Virus record (IMG/VR): IMGVR_UViG_3300031953_000007
Span: 1 to 62,289 of that record
From: a virus
Taxonomy: Duplodnaviria; Caudoviricetes
DNA length: 62,289 bases
Direction: 5' to 3' (one strand)
The notes below the pieces were generated by a model, which was not told the DNA's origin, did no database searches, and saw nothing but the letters and a program-made list of their open reading frames with translations. Shown here piece by piece: positions 29,829 to 35,443 of this stretch. Position 1 is the stretch's first letter; each line of letters opens with the position of its first letter. The translations under genes were made by a program, and so were the position numbers.

Positions 29829-30082
29829 GGGGCCCCCTTATCCCGAACCGAACTCGAAACCGAAGTGGCCCCCGGTTTCTAGGGTTGGGGGAGGGGGACC
29901 CGCGCAGCGACTCAGAACGAAATTTAAAGTTTCTTAGTGCCCCGTTTCTCGGCACCCCCCACCCCTTTCTCAGAACTCGATTCCAAAAAAATTCGCTAAA
30001 AAATAACCCAGTATCTGATATAACATATACCTAAGCGCCAGATTCCACTACAATCGTCAAATCTTTGACAGGACCCCGTTAT

Positions 30083-30550
30083 ATGCCCCCGAAGCTGACA
30101 GAGAGACAGAGAAAATTCGCAAAGATGGTCGGACAGGGCACGAGCCTAACCGGGGCGGCCACCCACTTGAAGTATGGTGCCCCCAGTCAAGCCGCGTGGC
30201 GTATGATGCAGAACCCTAAAATCAAGCTCGCCGTTGCTCAGGAAAAAGAACGGTACGCCAAGGCGTCGGACATGACCCGTGCCAAGGTTATCGACGGCAT
30301 GAAGGAGGCTATTGATATGGCCCGCCTGAAAGCAGACCCGACCGCTATGATTCAGGGTTACCGGGAGATTGGCCGGATGTGCGGGTTTTATGAGCCGACG
30401 AAGCATCAGGTTAACGTGTCGGTGAATGGGCAGGTTATGCTTCAGAGGATGCAGTCCATGTCCGACGAAGAATTGCTGCAGCTCGCCGACGAGAAGGACG
30501 TTCTTGAGGGCGATTTTGAGGAGGTCACCGAGGAACCTAGTGATGATTAA
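30083..30550 (+). CDS. terS: Terminase small subunit
   Basis: LTERQRKF...AA...Y.....A.R....P.I N-terminal HTH; upstream of TerL. Confidence 0.8.
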   Translation: MPPKLTERQRKFAKMVGQGTSLTGAATHLKYGAPSQAAWRMMQNPKIKLAVAQEKERYAKASDMTRAKVIDGMKEAIDMARLKADPTAMIQGYREIGRMCGFYEPTKHQVNVSVNGQVMLQRMQSMSDEELLQLADEKDVLEGDFEEVTEEPSDD

Positions 30551-30749: not shown

Positions 30750-30907
30750 GGTTCTTACCGTTTATTGGTTTCCGCAGGTGCCACGTCGATTTTGCTGGCT
30801 GGCGCGTGGACCACGATTCCGGGTACACAGCTGAGACGCTTGAAGTCGAGTGGCTGTTTGTCAGGATAACTCTGTACACGTTCGGTTATCGCAAAGGACC
30901 GCTATGA
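30746..30907 (+). CDS. Small hypothetical protein (53 aa, not in track)
   Basis: ATGA-coupled on both sides (30746 and 30904). Confidence 0.55.
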   Translation: MRFLPFIGFRRCHVDFAGWRVDHDSGYTAETLEVEWLFVRITLYTFGYRKGPL

Positions 30908-33297
30908 GCGCCCCGACCAAAATTCAGAAGCTCCTTGCTGGGCGCGAACTGGCTCGGCGCCGGTTACTGCACTTCACGAAGGTGACCCACGGGTCCTACG
31001 ACGCCGGCTGGGTGCACGAGGATATCTGCCGCCGGCTTGAGAAGTTCTCTAAGGACGTGGCCGACGGCAAGTCGCCAAGACTCATGCTCCTGATGCCCCC
31101 ACGTCACGGTAAAAGTGAGCTGGCCTCGATACGCTTCCCGGCGTGGCACTTTGGCTCGTACCCCCACCACGAAATTATCAACGTCGGTTACAACACCGAG
31201 CTGCCCATGAAGTTCTCGCGCAAGGTGCGGGAAGTCATGCGCGAAGGTCAGTATCAGGGGATCTTCCCCAATGCAGCACTCGACCCTAATTCTCAGTCCG
31301 TAGAAGCGTGGTACACAACTGCCGGCGGCGGATTTACCGCGGCGGGTGTTGGTGGTGGTATTACCGGTAAGGGCGCGCACGTTCTGGTTATCGACGACCC
31401 TATTAAGAACCAAGAGGAAGCAGACAGCGTGTCTGTCCGCGACAAGCTCTGGGACTGGTACCAGTCGACGGCGTACACCCGCTTGGCGCCCGGCGGCGGG
31501 GTGCTGGTTATCGAGTGTATGACGGGTGATACCCCGGTCAGACTCCCCAACGGCTCAGAACGTCGTCTTGACGAGCTGCGTGCAGGGGACGTTATTGCTA
31601 CGTATGAGAATGGGAAATTATCATCTTCTCGCGTGGCTAATCACCGCAGTAGTGGTAATGATCACATCTTGAGGATTACCACGAGTTCCGGTAAAATAGT
31701 ACGTGCTAACGGACGGCATCCGTTCTTAGCTACGACAACTACCGGAGAGTTAAAGTGGATAAGAGCGCGCAGCCTGTCATTAGCGAACAAAATCGTAACC
31801 GTAAAGGCCAGTGGGGGAAATACGCAGGGGTCGAATGCGCCGCAGCTGATTGCGACAAACCCGCCAAGTGCAGAGGTTTCTGCCCTAGTCACTACAGTAA
31901 GTGGAAGTGGGCTAGTGGGTACCGCGCCCCGTCTGCTAACCCAGTCTCCCAGCGCGCAGCACACCTCAAGTACAGATATGGGATCACAGCGGACGAGTAC
32001 CAAGCCCTCCTTGAAGAACAGAATGGCTTGTGCGCAATCTGCAGAAAAACTGGCAAAGACTCCAGAAACCCAGATCGGTGGAACCACATCCTCGCCGTCG
32101 ACCACTGCCACGACTCCAACAAAGTCCGAGGGTTGCTCTGCAACGACTGTAACGCTGGAATCGGACATCTTGGAACTGAGTCCATCGCACTTGCCGCTGC
32201 ACGATACCTCCGACTTCACGCTTGATGAGATAGTCAGTATCGAGCCTGATGGTGTCGAGGAAGTGTTCGATATCTCTGTCGAACGTACCACGAACTTCAT
32301 CGCTAATGGCGTGGTATCGTCGAATACATGGTGGAACGACGATGACCTCGCCGGCAGGCTCCAAGATTCCATGCGCAGGGATCCTGAGGCGGATCAGTTC
32401 GAGATCGTGAAGTACCCGGCTATTTCGGGCCAGTACGAATATCGCAACGACGAGACGAACGCGATTGTCTGCTTTACCGAAGACCCCAACCTGCTCGAAG
32501 GTGATGACGCTACCAAAGGGCTGACCCTGCTACGTAAGCCCAACGAGTGTCTGCACCACGGTCGCTACCCGCTTAGCGCCTTGAAGCGCATCAAAGCGAA
32601 CTTACAGCCCCGGATCTGGTCGGCTTTGTTCCAGCAGAACCCTGTTCCTGATGAGGGCATGTACTTCCGGAAGGATTATTTTCGAGAGCAGCAGACGTTC
32701 CCCCAGACCTTCGGGCTTAGAATCTTCACGGCGTGGGACTTCGCGATTGGTGAGAAGCAGGTCAACGACTGGACAGTTGGGGCCACCTTGCTCCAAGACG
32801 AGAACGACGTGCTGTATGTCCTCGACATACACAGATTTCGCGGTGACAGTTTCCAGATCGTAGAGGCCATACTCGACACCACTGAGCGCTACAGTTCGTT
32901 GGCCGGAGTGGACTATCAGGTGGGTGCCGAGGACGGCATGATATGGCGGTCCATCGAACCCTTGTTGAAACGCCGCATGGGCGAGCGCCGGCTGTTCCCG
33001 GTTATTGAGCCGTTACGGCCAATAACAGACAAAGCTGCACGGGCCCGCCCGTTGCAGGGTAGAATGCAGCAGGGCCGGGTTGTTTTCCCGGCAGAGGCGC
33101 ACTGGAAGGGGACGGCAGTATCCGAGATGCTAAGATTCCCGGCAGGTGCGCACGACGACGTAGTGGACGCGCTGGCGTGGGCCGTCCGTTTAAGCATGAT
33201 GTCCGAGCCACCACAGCAGCCGCAGGAGCGCCGGATACCTTCATGGCGAGACAAGCTAACAGCCGCCGGCAACGCCGGCAGCCACATGACCGCATAG
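30904..33297 (+). CDS. terL: Terminase large subunit, intein-containing
   Basis: Walker A PPRHGKS, Walker B LVIDDP, nuclease AWDFA and HDDVVDA. Confidence 0.93.
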   Translation: MSAPTKIQKLLAGRELARRRLLHFTKVTHGSYDAGWVHEDICRRLEKFSKDVADGKSPRLMLLMPPRHGKSELASIRFPAWHFGSYPHHEIINVGYNTELPMKFSRKVREVMREGQYQGIFPNAALDPNSQSVEAWYTTAGGGFTAAGVGGGITGKGAHVLVIDDPIKNQEEADSVSVRDKLWDWYQSTAYTRLAPGGGVLVIECMTGDTPVRLPNGSERRLDELRAGDVIATYENGKLSSSRVANHRSSGNDHILRITTSSGKIVRANGRHPFLATTTTGELKWIRARSLSLANKIVTVKASGGNTQGSNAPQLIATNPPSAEVSALVTTVSGSGLVGTAPRLLTQSPSAQHTSSTDMGSQRTSTKPSLKNRMACAQSAEKLAKTPETQIGGTTSSPSTTATTPTKSEGCSATTVTLESDILELSPSHLPLHDTSDFTLDEIVSIEPDGVEEVFDISVERTTNFIANGVVSSNTWWNDDDLAGRLQDSMRRDPEADQFEIVKYPAISGQYEYRNDETNAIVCFTEDPNLLEGDDATKGLTLLRKPNECLHHGRYPLSALKRIKANLQPRIWSALFQQNPVPDEGMYFRKDYFREQQTFPQTFGLRIFTAWDFAIGEKQVNDWTVGATLLQDENDVLYVLDIHRFRGDSFQIVEAILDTTERYSSLAGVDYQVGAEDGMIWRSIEPLLKRRMGERRLFPVIEPLRPITDKAARARPLQGRMQQGRVVFPAEAHWKGTAVSEMLRFPAGAHDDVVDALAWAVRLSMMSEPPQQPQERRIPSWRDKLTAAGNAGSHMTA
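31516..32325 (+). mobile_element. Intein (270 aa) in TerL
   Basis: Block A CMTGDTPVRL, block B ANGRHPF, block F VFDISVE..NFIANG, block G SSN/T; removal restores VLVIE-TWWNDDDLAGRL. Confidence 0.92.
31755..32225 (+). CDS. Endonuclease VII-type HNH endonuclease nested out of frame inside the intein
   Basis: YGIT..EY..LL..Q.G.CAIC...LAVDHCH....VRGLLC..CN.GIG; N-terminal C..C...G.C..HY finger; GGAG 7 nt before GTG. Confidence 0.88.
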   Translation: MDKSAQPVISEQNRNRKGQWGKYAGVECAAADCDKPAKCRGFCPSHYSKWKWASGYRAPSANPVSQRAAHLKYRYGITADEYQALLEEQNGLCAICRKTGKDSRNPDRWNHILAVDHCHDSNKVRGLLCNDCNAGIGHLGTESIALAAARYLRLHA

Positions 33298-33310: not shown

Positions 33311-35443
33311 ATGCCAGTGAATACGAGCCTTGCTCAGGAGATATGGGACCGCTACCTGTGGTTGCGGGATAACGGCCACCACAAATACGTCCGCAAGGCC
33401 GAGCAGTGTGAGAACTTCTTCGAAGGCCTGCAGTGGTCAGAGGAAGATTTGGCGTTGATGCGCAGTTATAAGCGCCCTGCTCTGACGATCAACAAAATCA
33501 TCAGCACCATCAGCAACGTGCTGGGCGAGCAGATCTTCAACCGGGCGGACATCGCCTACAAGCCCCGGGGCAAAGGTGCGACAGCAGAGGTCGCTACAGC
33601 CTTGTCGAAAGTCTTTATGCAGATTTCGGACAATAATAATCTCCCTTGGTTACGCAGTGACGTGTTCTGCGACGGGATTATCACCTCCCGCGGGTTCTTC
33701 GACGTCAGGCTTGAGTTCGACGAGAACCAGCAAGGCGAGATACGGATCACCCAGCCCAACCCCAAGAACGTGCTGATTGACGCGGACGCGGACGAATACG
33801 ACCCGGATACGTGGGGCGACGTGGTGACGTCCAAGTGGATGAGCCCCGACGAAATCGAGGCTGTGTATTCGAAGAAAGACGCCGACCTGCTCCGCAACCG
33901 TGTAGATTCGTACATGCCCTATGGGCTTGATGCCGTAGAGCTTGCAGGCCGGGACCGTTTTGGCGATGCGCGCGGCACTCACTACCAGTATGCCGGCGGA
34001 GCCTCCGAGGGCAGCGTGCGCAGTATCCGGGTTATTGAGCGTCAGTACCGCAAGCTCGACAAAACCCTGCACTTCGTGGATTTGCGCTCAGGCGAGACTC
34101 GCCCTGTCCCAGCAGACTGGGATGAGACGGAGATTCAGAATTACCTCGAAAATAACCCTGACGCCTACACGCAGAAACGTTTGATCCGCCGCATCCGCTG
34201 GACAGTGGTCGCTGACAACATCGTGCTGCACGATGACTGGAGCCCGTACCGGCACTACACCATCGTGCCCTACTTCCCGTATTTCCGCCGCGGGCGCACC
34301 GTCGGGCTGGTCGAGAACCTGCTTGGACCGCAAGAGCTGCTGAACAAGGTGTCCAGCCAAGAGCTGCACGTTATTAACACCACAGCGAACTCTGGCTGGA
34401 AGATAAAGCGCAACGGTCTGGTGAACATGACCATTGGCGAGCTTGAGCAGCGCGGCGCGCAGTCCGGACTGGTACTTGAGTTGGACGAGCTCACCAGCGC
34501 GGAAAAAATCCAGCCTAACCAGACACCCAACGGCTTGGACCGCATCAGCTACAAAGCTGAGGAGCACATCAAGACGATCTCCGGTGTGAGCGACTACATG
34601 TCAGGCTTCGCCCGCGAGGACGTGTCTGCCAAGAGCGTGGTAGCAAACCAAGAAGGTGGGCAGGCGAATCTGGCCAAGGTCATGGATAACATGAACCGGT
34701 CTGATCACATGCTGGCCCGCGTAGTGCTGAGTGTCGTGCAGGAGTATTACACGGAAGAACGGCTCGTCCACATCACGACTGACAAACTGGCCGGCAAGAC
34801 TGAAGAAGTCATGGTCAACGAGATCTCGCCCGAGGGTGAAATTGTCAATGATTTGACGCTCGGAGAGTACTCGATCCTTGTGACTCGCCAGCCAGAACGT
34901 GACCAGATGGAAGTGAGCCAGTTCGAGCAGGCCATGAGACTTCGCACAGACGCTGGCATTCCTATATCAGATAAGTTTATCATTGGTGCCAGCCGGATGA
35001 AGGACAAGGCAGATATCCTGTCCGAGCTCGAAGAACAGGGCCAGTCGGAAGAAGCACAGGCTGAACGGGAGCTGCAGCAACGTGACGCAGCAGCCGAGGT
35101 CGCTGTGAAAGAGGCCAACGCCCTGTCGAAGCAGGCAGATGCTCGTTTGCGTGACGCCAAGTCTCAGAAAGAGATGCTGACCATCCAGAAGGACATGCAG
35201 ACAATGCAGAACGGCGGGCAAGTCCCCGGCGAGATGCAGATGAAGATGGCAGAACTTCAGATGGAGATGCAGCTCAAGCGTGAGGAGATGGACCGTGAGT
35301 TCGAGCTGAAACGCGAAGCGATGGTTATGGAGTACGATTTCAAACGTGAGGAAGCGGCTTTGAACGCGAAGGTCGAGCAACAGAAGGCGAAAGATGAGCG
35401 CGTAGACGCCGTCTTTAACAGTTCTAACCAAGGCGAGGAATAA
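33311..35443 (+). CDS. Portal protein (P22-like)
   Basis: F..G.QW, RP.LTINKI, position after TerL, C-terminal coiled coil. Confidence 0.85.
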   Translation: MPVNTSLAQEIWDRYLWLRDNGHHKYVRKAEQCENFFEGLQWSEEDLALMRSYKRPALTINKIISTISNVLGEQIFNRADIAYKPRGKGATAEVATALSKVFMQISDNNNLPWLRSDVFCDGIITSRGFFDVRLEFDENQQGEIRITQPNPKNVLIDADADEYDPDTWGDVVTSKWMSPDEIEAVYSKKDADLLRNRVDSYMPYGLDAVELAGRDRFGDARGTHYQYAGGASEGSVRSIRVIERQYRKLDKTLHFVDLRSGETRPVPADWDETEIQNYLENNPDAYTQKRLIRRIRWTVVADNIVLHDDWSPYRHYTIVPYFPYFRRGRTVGLVENLLGPQELLNKVSSQELHVINTTANSGWKIKRNGLVNMTIGELEQRGAQSGLVLELDELTSAEKIQPNQTPNGLDRISYKAEEHIKTISGVSDYMSGFAREDVSAKSVVANQEGGQANLAKVMDNMNRSDHMLARVVLSVVQEYYTEERLVHITTDKLAGKTEEVMVNEISPEGEIVNDLTLGEYSILVTRQPERDQMEVSQFEQAMRLRTDAGIPISDKFIIGASRMKDKADILSELEEQGQSEEAQAERELQQRDAAAEVAVKEANALSKQADARLRDAKSQKEMLTIQKDMQTMQNGGQVPGEMQMKMAELQMEMQLKREEMDREFELKREAMVMEYDFKREEAALNAKVEQQKAKDERVDAVFNSSNQGEE

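Follow-up and report, generated by a model that had tools for sequence, protein, structure and literature searches.

An endonuclease VII-type gene nested out of frame in the terminase intein of a KPP25-like brine phage

Introduction

The closest described relatives of the element discussed here come from a survey of PhagesDB by Gosselin, Arsenault, and Gogarten (bioRxiv 10.1101/2025.01.02.630785), the main text of which reports 63 inteins with non-canonical homing endonucleases (HENs), states that the arrangement had not been reported before, and names the phages Affeca, Keitabear, Sedona, and "Angelicase." In that text, the authors propose that inteins have captured free-standing HENs, warn that the products pass as mini-inteins, and mention that a dnaX intein of Synechocystis has a LAGLIDADG HEN in antisense orientation. 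Here, we describe an intein of this kind in IMGVR_UViG_3300031953_000007, an IMG/VR virus record of the class Caudoviricetes, which was analyzed in its entirety (62,289 nucleotides [nt]; completeness estimate 94%) and is referred to below as the window. The gene for its large terminase subunit, TerL, contains a predicted class-1 intein, and the DNA between the two halves of the splicing domain also encodes, in a shifted frame, a nuclease of the endonuclease VII type.

Judged by its sequence, the window element is a further member of the out-of-frame endonuclease VII-type inteins, found this time in a KPP25-like brine phage, and we think it likely to be a mobile TerL intein of this type. The first-pass annotation, made from the DNA letters without database searches, had suggested that the architecture might be new; it is already in print for actinobacteriophages in the survey cited above. 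What is added here is the breadth of the family, frame-wise selection figures, the location of initiation signals within intein codons, and an interleaving of predicted order and disorder in the two proteins.

The nested nuclease gene

The TerL open reading frame (ORF) occupies 30850-33297 on the + strand, encodes 815 amino acids (aa) with matches to Terminase_6N, Terminase_6C, and Intein_splicing (Pfam), and is labelled terminase large subunit by PHROGs. Within it lies a second + strand ORF of 156 aa (31755-32225), which starts with GTG, ends with TGA, and receives the PHROGs label endonuclease VII. The distance between the two starts (31755 − 30850 = 905) is 2 mod 3, which places the small ORF in frame +2 (equivalently, −1) of TerL. 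Its match to Endonuclease_7 (PF02945) extends from position 3 to position 81 of the 82-position profile and scores 72.2 bits (E 3.3e-20), the cut-off being 23.6. Both frames are open across 471 nt. Two basic claims of the first-pass annotation, that is, a 156-aa HNH nuclease of the endonuclease VII type in the +2 frame and about 470 bp of dual-coding DNA, are borne out by these results.

In an AlphaFold2 model built with 26 homologues (mean pLDDT 82.7; pLDDT stands for predicted local distance difference test), the nuclease is predicted to be disordered over residues 1-18, to continue with a small module rich in Cys, and to have a beta-beta-alpha core with strands at 114-117 and 124-128 and a helix at 130-139 (pLDDT ~90). 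The N-terminal module (31836-31892, +) is zinc-finger-like (C28, C33, C43, H46), shows short strands and a helix in the model, and may well bind zinc. The endonuclease VII-type beta-beta-alpha-metal core takes up residues 70-153 (31962-32213, +) and is recognized by PF02945, by a profile search, and by Foldseek. Across 26 sequences, C28, C33, and C43 of the module and C93, C96, D116, H117, H119, C129, C132, and N133 of the core are invariant.

The profile search matched the nuclease to T4 endonuclease VII (1e7d, E 6.3e-9) and aligned C93, C96, C129, C132, H117, and N133 with T4 residues C23, C26, C58, C61, H43, and N62 (T4 numbers being counted from chain residue 10 of the profile alignment). 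Two PDB entries, 2qnf (H43N) and 1e7l (N62D), are mutated at exactly the T4 counterparts of H117 and N133. Top Foldseek matches of the model are the T4 endonuclease VII structures 1e7l, 2qnf, and 1en7, and Hpy99I, with a probability of 1.0 but an E-value of 3e-3 and a template modeling (TM) score of 0.33.

The TerL intein

The intein proposed by the first-pass annotation at 31516-32325 (+) stands. It is a class-1 intein of 270 aa, running from Cys1 to Ser-Asn270 and followed by Thr+1, with boundaries at VLVIE-CMTGDT ... VVSSN-TWW (the hyphens marking the junctions). The excised 270 aa match Intein_splicing with 59.6 bits, the gathering cut-off being 35.8. In 25 homologues, C1, N65, R67, H68, D252, T258, N260, and N270 are invariant, and the class-1 set is complete: the C1 nucleophile, the block-B H68 (N-x-R-H), N270, and Thr+1, the last present at all loci listed. 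Two positions depart from the usual pattern. The penultimate His of block G, which is usual and not universal, is Ser269 in the window (His in 23 of 25 aligned inteins; locus L028 also has Ser), and block F has Thr in place of the usual Glu (consensus residue in 23 of 25).

An AlphaFold2 model of the intein, built with the 25 homologues, predicts an all-beta Hint fold made of residues 1-99 and 230-270 (pLDDT 83-98). The N-terminal half (31516-31812, +) is modelled as beta strands with pLDDT 83-97. The C-terminal half (32203-32325, +) contains blocks F and G, with the conserved ...NFIANGxVS(H/S)N, and reaches pLDDT 90-98. The 130-aa loop between them (residues 100-229; 31813-32202, +) is predicted to be disordered (pLDDT ~30) and is rich in Ser, Thr, Pro, and Ala, with S+T+P amounting to 42%. 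The first-pass annotation was right about the Ser/Thr/Pro-rich and unstructured character of this linker, and its length of about 150 aa has to be corrected to 130. TerL is essential and the phage occurs at high depth in several metagenomes, which suggests that the intein splices.

The GTG start of the nuclease overlaps a conserved Trp codon of the intein, and its TGA falls at the beginning of the C-terminal Hint half; besides the loop, the nuclease ORF overlaps ~20 codons of the folded N-terminal and ~8 codons of the C-terminal Hint half. According to the models, order and disorder are interleaved, with the floppy N-terminus of the nuclease lying over the folded strands of the intein and the folded nuclease over the intein loop.

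Some relatives have a second insert of ~0.8-1.0 kb in the N-extein (L013:1627-2621, L038:1231-2192, L148:1388-2178, and L067:1929-3001). In window TerL numbering, these sit near residues 88-97 (L038, L148) or 176-179 (L013, L067), and the one in L148 weakly resembles the N-terminal half of the intein, with 32% over residues 8-102. They look like additional inteins.

Conservation across relatives

When the window nuclease was compared with GenBank phages by tblastn, the best matches lay inside terL of Gordonia and Mycobacterium phages and included Gordonia phages Affeca, Keitabear, Sedona, and "Angelicase"; the match in Angelicage, within its terL, has an E-value of 2e-25. In Angelicage, Affeca, AlanGrant, and Pipefish, too, the distance from the annotated terL start to the nuclease is 2 mod 3. 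None of the four phage records inspected annotates the nested nuclease, terL being given as a single coding sequence; such inteins would therefore be scored as mini-inteins, as the first-pass annotation had anticipated, or as decaying.

A scan of IMG/VR with the nuclease returned 54 loci. All 37 near-full-length loci (4 actinophages and 33 IMG/VR contigs) have the nuclease in frame +2 of a TerL/intein frame that stays open across it. Another 21 relatives, which are more distant, are genes standing alone, without TerL or intein nearby, and the corresponding frame is open in only two. The same nesting recurs in six more IMG/VR loci found through the C-extein and, in bacterial and archaeal genomes, in 18 of 19 near-full-length loci from several phyla. 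These 18 include contigs titled Bradyrhizobium tropiciagri, Oribacterium, Dysosmobacter, and Mycolicibacterium vanbaalenii, and others from metagenome-assembled genomes (MAGs) of Sulfuritalea, Anaerolineae, Opitutaceae, Saccharimonadales, and others. Since the binning of MAG contigs can err, isolate genomes should weigh most when spread across phyla is considered. The intein insertion site is identical across all intein-bearing loci.

Lack of conservation, which the first-pass annotation had named as grounds for giving up its proposal, was thus not what we found (37/37, 6, and 18/19 loci). The nesting is neither chance nor sequencing error, and the architecture is real and widely conserved. 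By sequence relationship, the family appears to span environmental phages related to Pseudomonas phages and prophage-like loci of several bacterial phyla.

Several loci vary on this theme. In L002, L031-L033, and L035-L038, 35-50 additional aa at the N-terminus repeat the Cys-rich module (CxTxGC...GLCxxCY) and give the nuclease two zinc-finger-like units in place of one; in L033-L038 the start still overlaps the intein Trp codon. The nuclease at L024:3001-3453 has lost seven core residues (the KVRGLLC stretch) with both frames still open and may be a copy in early decay. On a 911-kb contig of an Alphaproteobacteria MAG, the TerL/intein frame switches twice (L154:2203-4254), so that the N-extein and the first 120 intein residues are in the frame of the nuclease; either the gene belongs to a prophage and has decayed, or indel errors of long reads are responsible.

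Selection and chance

A codon alignment of 32 unique nuclease ORFs was used to compare selection in the two frames. At the first, second, and third positions of the nuclease codons, nucleotide diversity is 0.33, 0.30, and 0.58, respectively. Over the same bases, amino acid identity in the nuclease frame (0.57) exceeds that in the TerL frame (0.33), and it does so in 496 of 496 pairs. An OLGenie-like count of nonsynonymous to synonymous change (dN/dS), restricted to the loop-overlapping part and made with uncorrected distances and a synonymous class near saturation, gave 0.23 for the nuclease over 49 pairs (70-97% nt identity) and 0.18 over 4 pairs (80-97%); for the TerL-frame linker, the values were 0.88 and 1.05. 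None of the 32 sequences (45-68% identical) has a stop in the nuclease frame. These frame-wise figures mark the nuclease as the selected gene and the TerL-frame linker as neutral filler that is kept stop-free; the dN/dS check proposed in the first-pass annotation thus comes out with purifying selection on the nuclease (~0.2) and ~0.9-1.05 for the linker.

When the nuclease protein was recoded 5000 times with the genome-wide codon usage of the window, the TerL frame remained free of stops in 1.1% of recodings, the mean being 3.5 stops. All 13 at-risk Leu, Ile, and Val codons (those before a codon starting with A or G) are NTC or NTT, with NTA and NTG avoided. The third + frame has 12 stops. Over 31300-32500, contigs from X11 and X13, two brine-metagenome runs independent of each other, match with zero gaps.

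A 236-aa antisense frame in the ORF list (31662-32372, − strand) was considered as a gene and rejected; the matching frame is stop-free in only 4 of the 32 unique homologues, and we judge it a chance by-product.

How the nuclease is probably made

The nuclease carries its own ribosome binding site, as claimed in the first-pass annotation: a GGAG Shine–Dalgarno (SD) sequence at 31744-31747 (+), 7 nt before the GTG, supplied by the Gly-Glu codons of the intein (GGA GAG). Of the 32 unique loci, 24 have an SD-like 4-mer 4-10 nt upstream of the start, and 19 have GGAG at a spacing of exactly 7 nt. The Gly codon that supplies it is GGA, which the exteins of these loci use for only 10% of their Gly residues. 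In 25 of the 26 loci L005-L030, the collinear start is ATG or GTG.

Upstream of the start, at a distance of 45 nt, the nuclease frame is interrupted by a TAA (31707-31709, +); in L005-L030, a nuclease-frame stop lies 0-60 nt upstream, and in L025-L027 directly before the ATG. No slippery heptamer of the form X_XXY_YYZ occurs in 31690-31760 of the window. With a conserved SD and start, a short open stretch upstream, and no heptamer, the best reading is that the nuclease is probably translated by independent initiation on the terL messenger RNA (mRNA).

The first-pass annotation had gone on to propose that the dose and timing of the nuclease are uncoupled from TerL. Uncoupled timing finds no support, because the gene lies inside the TerL transcript and the search for an internal promoter gave only two 9-of-12 sigma-70-like matches upstream (31595-31624 and 31669-31697), as compared with 1.7 +/- 1.3 in shuffled sequence; an internal promoter was therefore rejected. 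The RNA around the nuclease start forms a stable fold in the window (−30.1 kcal/mol, z −2.86). Conserved RNA structure as a feature of the family was likewise rejected, 20 homologues giving a consensus of −0.34 kcal/mol and a single covarying pair.

Unlike most members, L028 has an A-rich stretch with no SD-like motif upstream of the nuclease start (L028:2981-3000), which may reflect a host without SD-led initiation. None of the runs listed with this stretch is labelled as RNA. Run X20, the RNA nature of which is only guessed, contains two exact 151-nt contigs within 31923-32213 (depth 3) and other pieces with short partial matches (35-62 nt, 3-4 differences); it was not used as evidence.

Mobility

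The 80 closest C-extein relatives in IMG/VR were surveyed for the insert. In 72, the exteins abut with no intein (a gap of 0 between N- and C-extein matches, with one of −11); six (L066, L072, L123, L124, L126, and L135) have both intein and nuclease; and, of the remaining two, L067 has an unrelated 942-nt gap and L092 is uninformative. In Pseudomonas phage phiR18, N- and C-extein matches are 3 nt apart.

On a FastTree extein tree of 93 rows, 26 of them intein-bearing (and, where they came from the nuclease scan, chosen for having the intein), the presence of the intein requires at least seven gains or losses. The window falls in a supported clade of 39 rows, 37 of which are intein-less. Similarities of intein and extein do not run in parallel: the nuclease of the window is closest to that of L135 (68.6%), yet the C-extein of L135 is only 46% identical, and L066, which is near in its extein, has a nuclease with only 53.8% identity to that of the window. 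Mobile elements typically show such a patchy spread among close relatives, here of TerL. On either side of the insertion point, 62 unique intein-less alleles share highly conserved DNA, as would be expected of a homing target.

Weighing the explanations

Under the reading that we prefer, a mobile intein with a separately encoded nuclease, TerL would be translated through the in-frame 270-aa insert, and the two Hint halves (residues 1-99 and 230-270) would fold together and excise it by the class-1 route, with Cys1, the block-B His, the C-terminal Asn, and Thr+1 as the players. The 130 residues between the halves would be meaningless filler, the sole requirement being that they contain no stop codon. 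Frame +2 would function as an independent gene with its own GGAG, a GTG start, and a 156-aa product made of the Cys-rich module and the HNH core. In a mixed infection, this nuclease would cut an intein-less terL near the conserved DNA encoding GGGVLVI(E/Q)-TWWNDDD (the hyphen marking the insertion point), and repair from the intein-bearing copy would copy intein and nuclease gene together, that is, homing. The composite of a splicing-only intein and a separate nuclease had already been proposed in the first-pass annotation, and the frame-wise selection, the conserved SD and start, and the patchy spread speak for it.

One should keep in mind several points that weigh against this reading. T4 endonuclease VII is a structure-specific resolvase and not a site-specific nuclease; sequence-specific cutting is therefore an assumption, made from the extra zinc-finger-like module. 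The SD sits on a conserved Gly-Glu of the intein, which could itself account for some of the conservation. Ser269 and the block-F Thr could make splicing of the window intein slower. The loci are related, and so counts of loci are not counts of independent events. A synonymous shuffle of the ORF's own codons does not reject chance for the window (76% stop-free; the median over 32 loci is 26%), and it was replaced by recoding with genome-wide usage because the ORF's own codon pool has already been purged of risky codons. One contig from run X12 (depth 58) is missing one G of the G5 run at 31813, which would be either an assembly error or a defective variant. In the main text of bioRxiv 10.1101/2025.01.02.630785, the endonuclease VII-type inteins of actinophages are said to have a "more ambiguous" distribution than the other types, and the parts of the literature covered hold no expression, splicing, or cleavage data for any member of the family.

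The lack of expression data would suit a relic, in which a nuclease once invaded a mini-intein and is now untranslated or inactive while the intein is inherited vertically. The loss of core residues in L024 and the frameshifted bacterial-genome copy L154 point the same way, as does a large clade, represented by 12 extein rows, in which all are intein-bearing, as fits vertical descent there. A decaying gene, however, should not keep a dN/dS of ~0.2 with the other frame neutral, invariant catalytic and zinc-ligand residues in all 26 sequences, a conserved start and SD, and an open frame in all 32 sequences at 45-68% identity, and neither the patchy distribution nor the incongruent intein and extein similarities favor vertical inheritance; we regard a relic as unlikely. 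Equally improbable, in our opinion, is a nuclease that serves the phage, be it by a packaging cut or debranching, as HNH terminase partners and T4 gp49 would suggest, or by exclusion of competing phages. T4 endonuclease VII clears branched DNA ahead of packaging, and the nested gene lies inside terL; HNH genes also commonly adjoin terminase genes, as noted in the available text of PMC3592412. Against such a service, the insert is absent from 72 of the 80 closest TerL relatives and hence dispensable for packaging, the nuclease, when nested in terL, is always inside the intein at one fixed site, and cutting intein-less competitors is homing, so that exclusion is not a separate mechanism.

Two further alternatives concern the frame itself. 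Programmed −1 ribosomal frameshifting, which would fuse the N-extein and the N-terminal intein half to the nuclease, could draw on the fact that frame +2 equals −1, the usual direction of programmed frameshifts, and on the stable RNA fold at the start in the window. We consider it very unlikely, since the fusion would run into the nuclease-frame stop 45 nt upstream of the start (0-60 nt in L005-L030 and abutting the ATG in L025-L027), there is no heptamer in 31690-31760, the SD and start codon are conserved, and the RNA structure is not conserved over the 20 homologues. That the nuclease is truly an in-frame domain of a canonical intein, displaced by a sequencing or assembly artefact, is for practical purposes refuted. 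The X12 deletion might seem to favor it, but this deletion would break both frames and would move TerL into the third frame with its 12 stops and not onto the nuclease. Contigs from X11 and X13 are free of gaps at word depths of ~7500 and ~4300, both frames are open for 471 nt, and the same relative frame is seen in 37 + 6 + 18 independently assembled loci, which include phage genomes from both the Sanger and the Illumina era. Frameshift errors that fuse the nuclease in frame, which the first-pass annotation had named as grounds for refutation, are accordingly not borne out by these contigs.

Genomic context and occurrence

The terL neighborhood is an ordinary packaging and head module with small terminase, portal, and major head protein genes, and the replication module is on the opposite strand. 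The small terminase subunit gene (30065-30550, +; phrog_51, E 8.3e-9) precedes terL. The TerL N-extein (30850-31515, +; Terminase_6N) is the ATPase part, ends in ...GGGVLVIE, and is 75-85% identical to the N-exteins of intein-less relatives; the C-extein (32326-33297, +; Terminase_6C) is the nuclease domain, begins with TWWNDDD, and is 44% identical to TerL of Pseudomonas phage KPP25. The portal protein gene follows (33311-35443, +), with 50% identity to the KPP25 portal by tblastn. For this uncultivated phage, the closest TerL and portal proteins are those of Pseudomonas phages KPP25 and phiR18, Acidovorax phage AP1, and Aeromonas phage phiA008 (32-50% aa identity), the best being KPP25 and phiR18 at 44-50%. 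No tRNA genes were found in the window. A 2651-aa ORF at 52534-60489 matches a PHROG "virion structural protein" (E 4e-125) with its C-terminal third and has no assignment for the first 1800 residues.

The stretch 31300-32500 occurs nearly word for word in brine, marine, and aquatic metagenome runs from 15 studies (2011-2024), and word depths are in the thousands in two of the runs examined, X11 and X13. It seems that this phage recurs in brine communities and is abundant there.

Implications

Whether the shifted-frame layout is an old, stable, and selected design or a short-lived accident is a finer question, and we incline, by a small margin, toward the former. What we have in mind is one homologous element that always keeps to one relative frame and one TerL insertion site and circulates among the phages and prophages of at least Pseudomonadota, Bacillota, Actinomycetota, and Chloroflexota, with its signals placed in intein codons (the SD in Gly-Glu, the start in Trp) and with interleaved order and disorder. 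If this is true, many of the "mini-inteins" and "decaying inteins" in databases would be misread active elements. For the evolution of inteins, the case supports the gain of nucleases by capture of free-standing genes. For the study of overlapping genes, it offers a clean natural example in which one frame is under all the selection and the other is merely open, and it can be used as a benchmark for overlap-aware selection tests. By itself, the window element opens no new mechanism.

Comparison with known systems

T4 gp49, that is, endonuclease VII, is a free-standing junction resolvase. The window nuclease shares its beta-beta-alpha-metal core and four-Cys zinc site (PDB 1e7d, 1en7, and 2qnf), but only ~65-95 residues align (TM 0.29-0.33), and the window protein has an extra Cys-rich module at its N-terminus.

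In the fractured genes of Dassa et al. (2009; PMC2677866), as described in the available text, the nuclease is likewise a separate gene inside an intein locus and not a domain of the polypeptide. There, however, the host gene is physically split and trans-spliced, with a free-standing HEN between the halves of a split intein, whereas in the window the host gene remains one ORF, and the DNA of the nuclease is read through in another frame. A cyanobacterial dnaX intein (2026 preprint, available in part) also has an HEN in an overlapping frame, is distributed sporadically, and is proposed to have arisen when a mini-intein was invaded secondarily; it differs in its host gene, dnaX, and in its cellular cyanobacterial hosts.

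The "hidden HNH" of ShiLan, in a mycobacteriophage DNA methylase (Arsenault et al., Genes 2025, PMC11855218), is, according to the available text, also an out-of-frame HNH with a GTG start, in an insert that is stop-free in the frame of the host gene and overlooked by standard annotation. The ShiLan insert has no splicing domain, and its filler stays in the protein, whereas the Hint domain of the window is predicted to remove the filler. It also has no detectable ribosome binding site, and leaderless initiation was proposed; the window, in contrast, has the GGAG SD.

None of the terms "endonuclease VII," "Pipefish," and "Vincenzo" occurs in the available text of Kelley et al. (2016; PMC5050341), and the layout is therefore not described in that text. 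Outside the actinobacteriophages, we found no report of the layout in the literature searched, which took in the abstract and parts of the main text of bioRxiv 10.1101/2025.01.02.630785. Conserved SD sequences, a start in the Trp codon, frame-wise selection, and prophage copies across phyla were not found in those parts either.

The inteins of Gosselin et al. are the nearest match. As in the window, the host is TerL, the splicing domain is in the extein frame, an endonuclease VII-like gene lies in "reading frame 3" between the splicing blocks, and the in-frame filler has no recognizable structure, as far as the main text describes them. The insertion site is the same, and, when the window is compared with Angelicage, Affeca, AlanGrant, and Pipefish, the nucleases are 44-50% and the inteins (residues 1-270) 33-43% identical. 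The difference lies in the phages: the survey was confined to PhagesDB, and the original description is of actinobacteriophages, which is a matter of scope and not of mechanism, whereas the backbone of the window is nearest to phages of Pseudomonas, Acidovorax, and Aeromonas.

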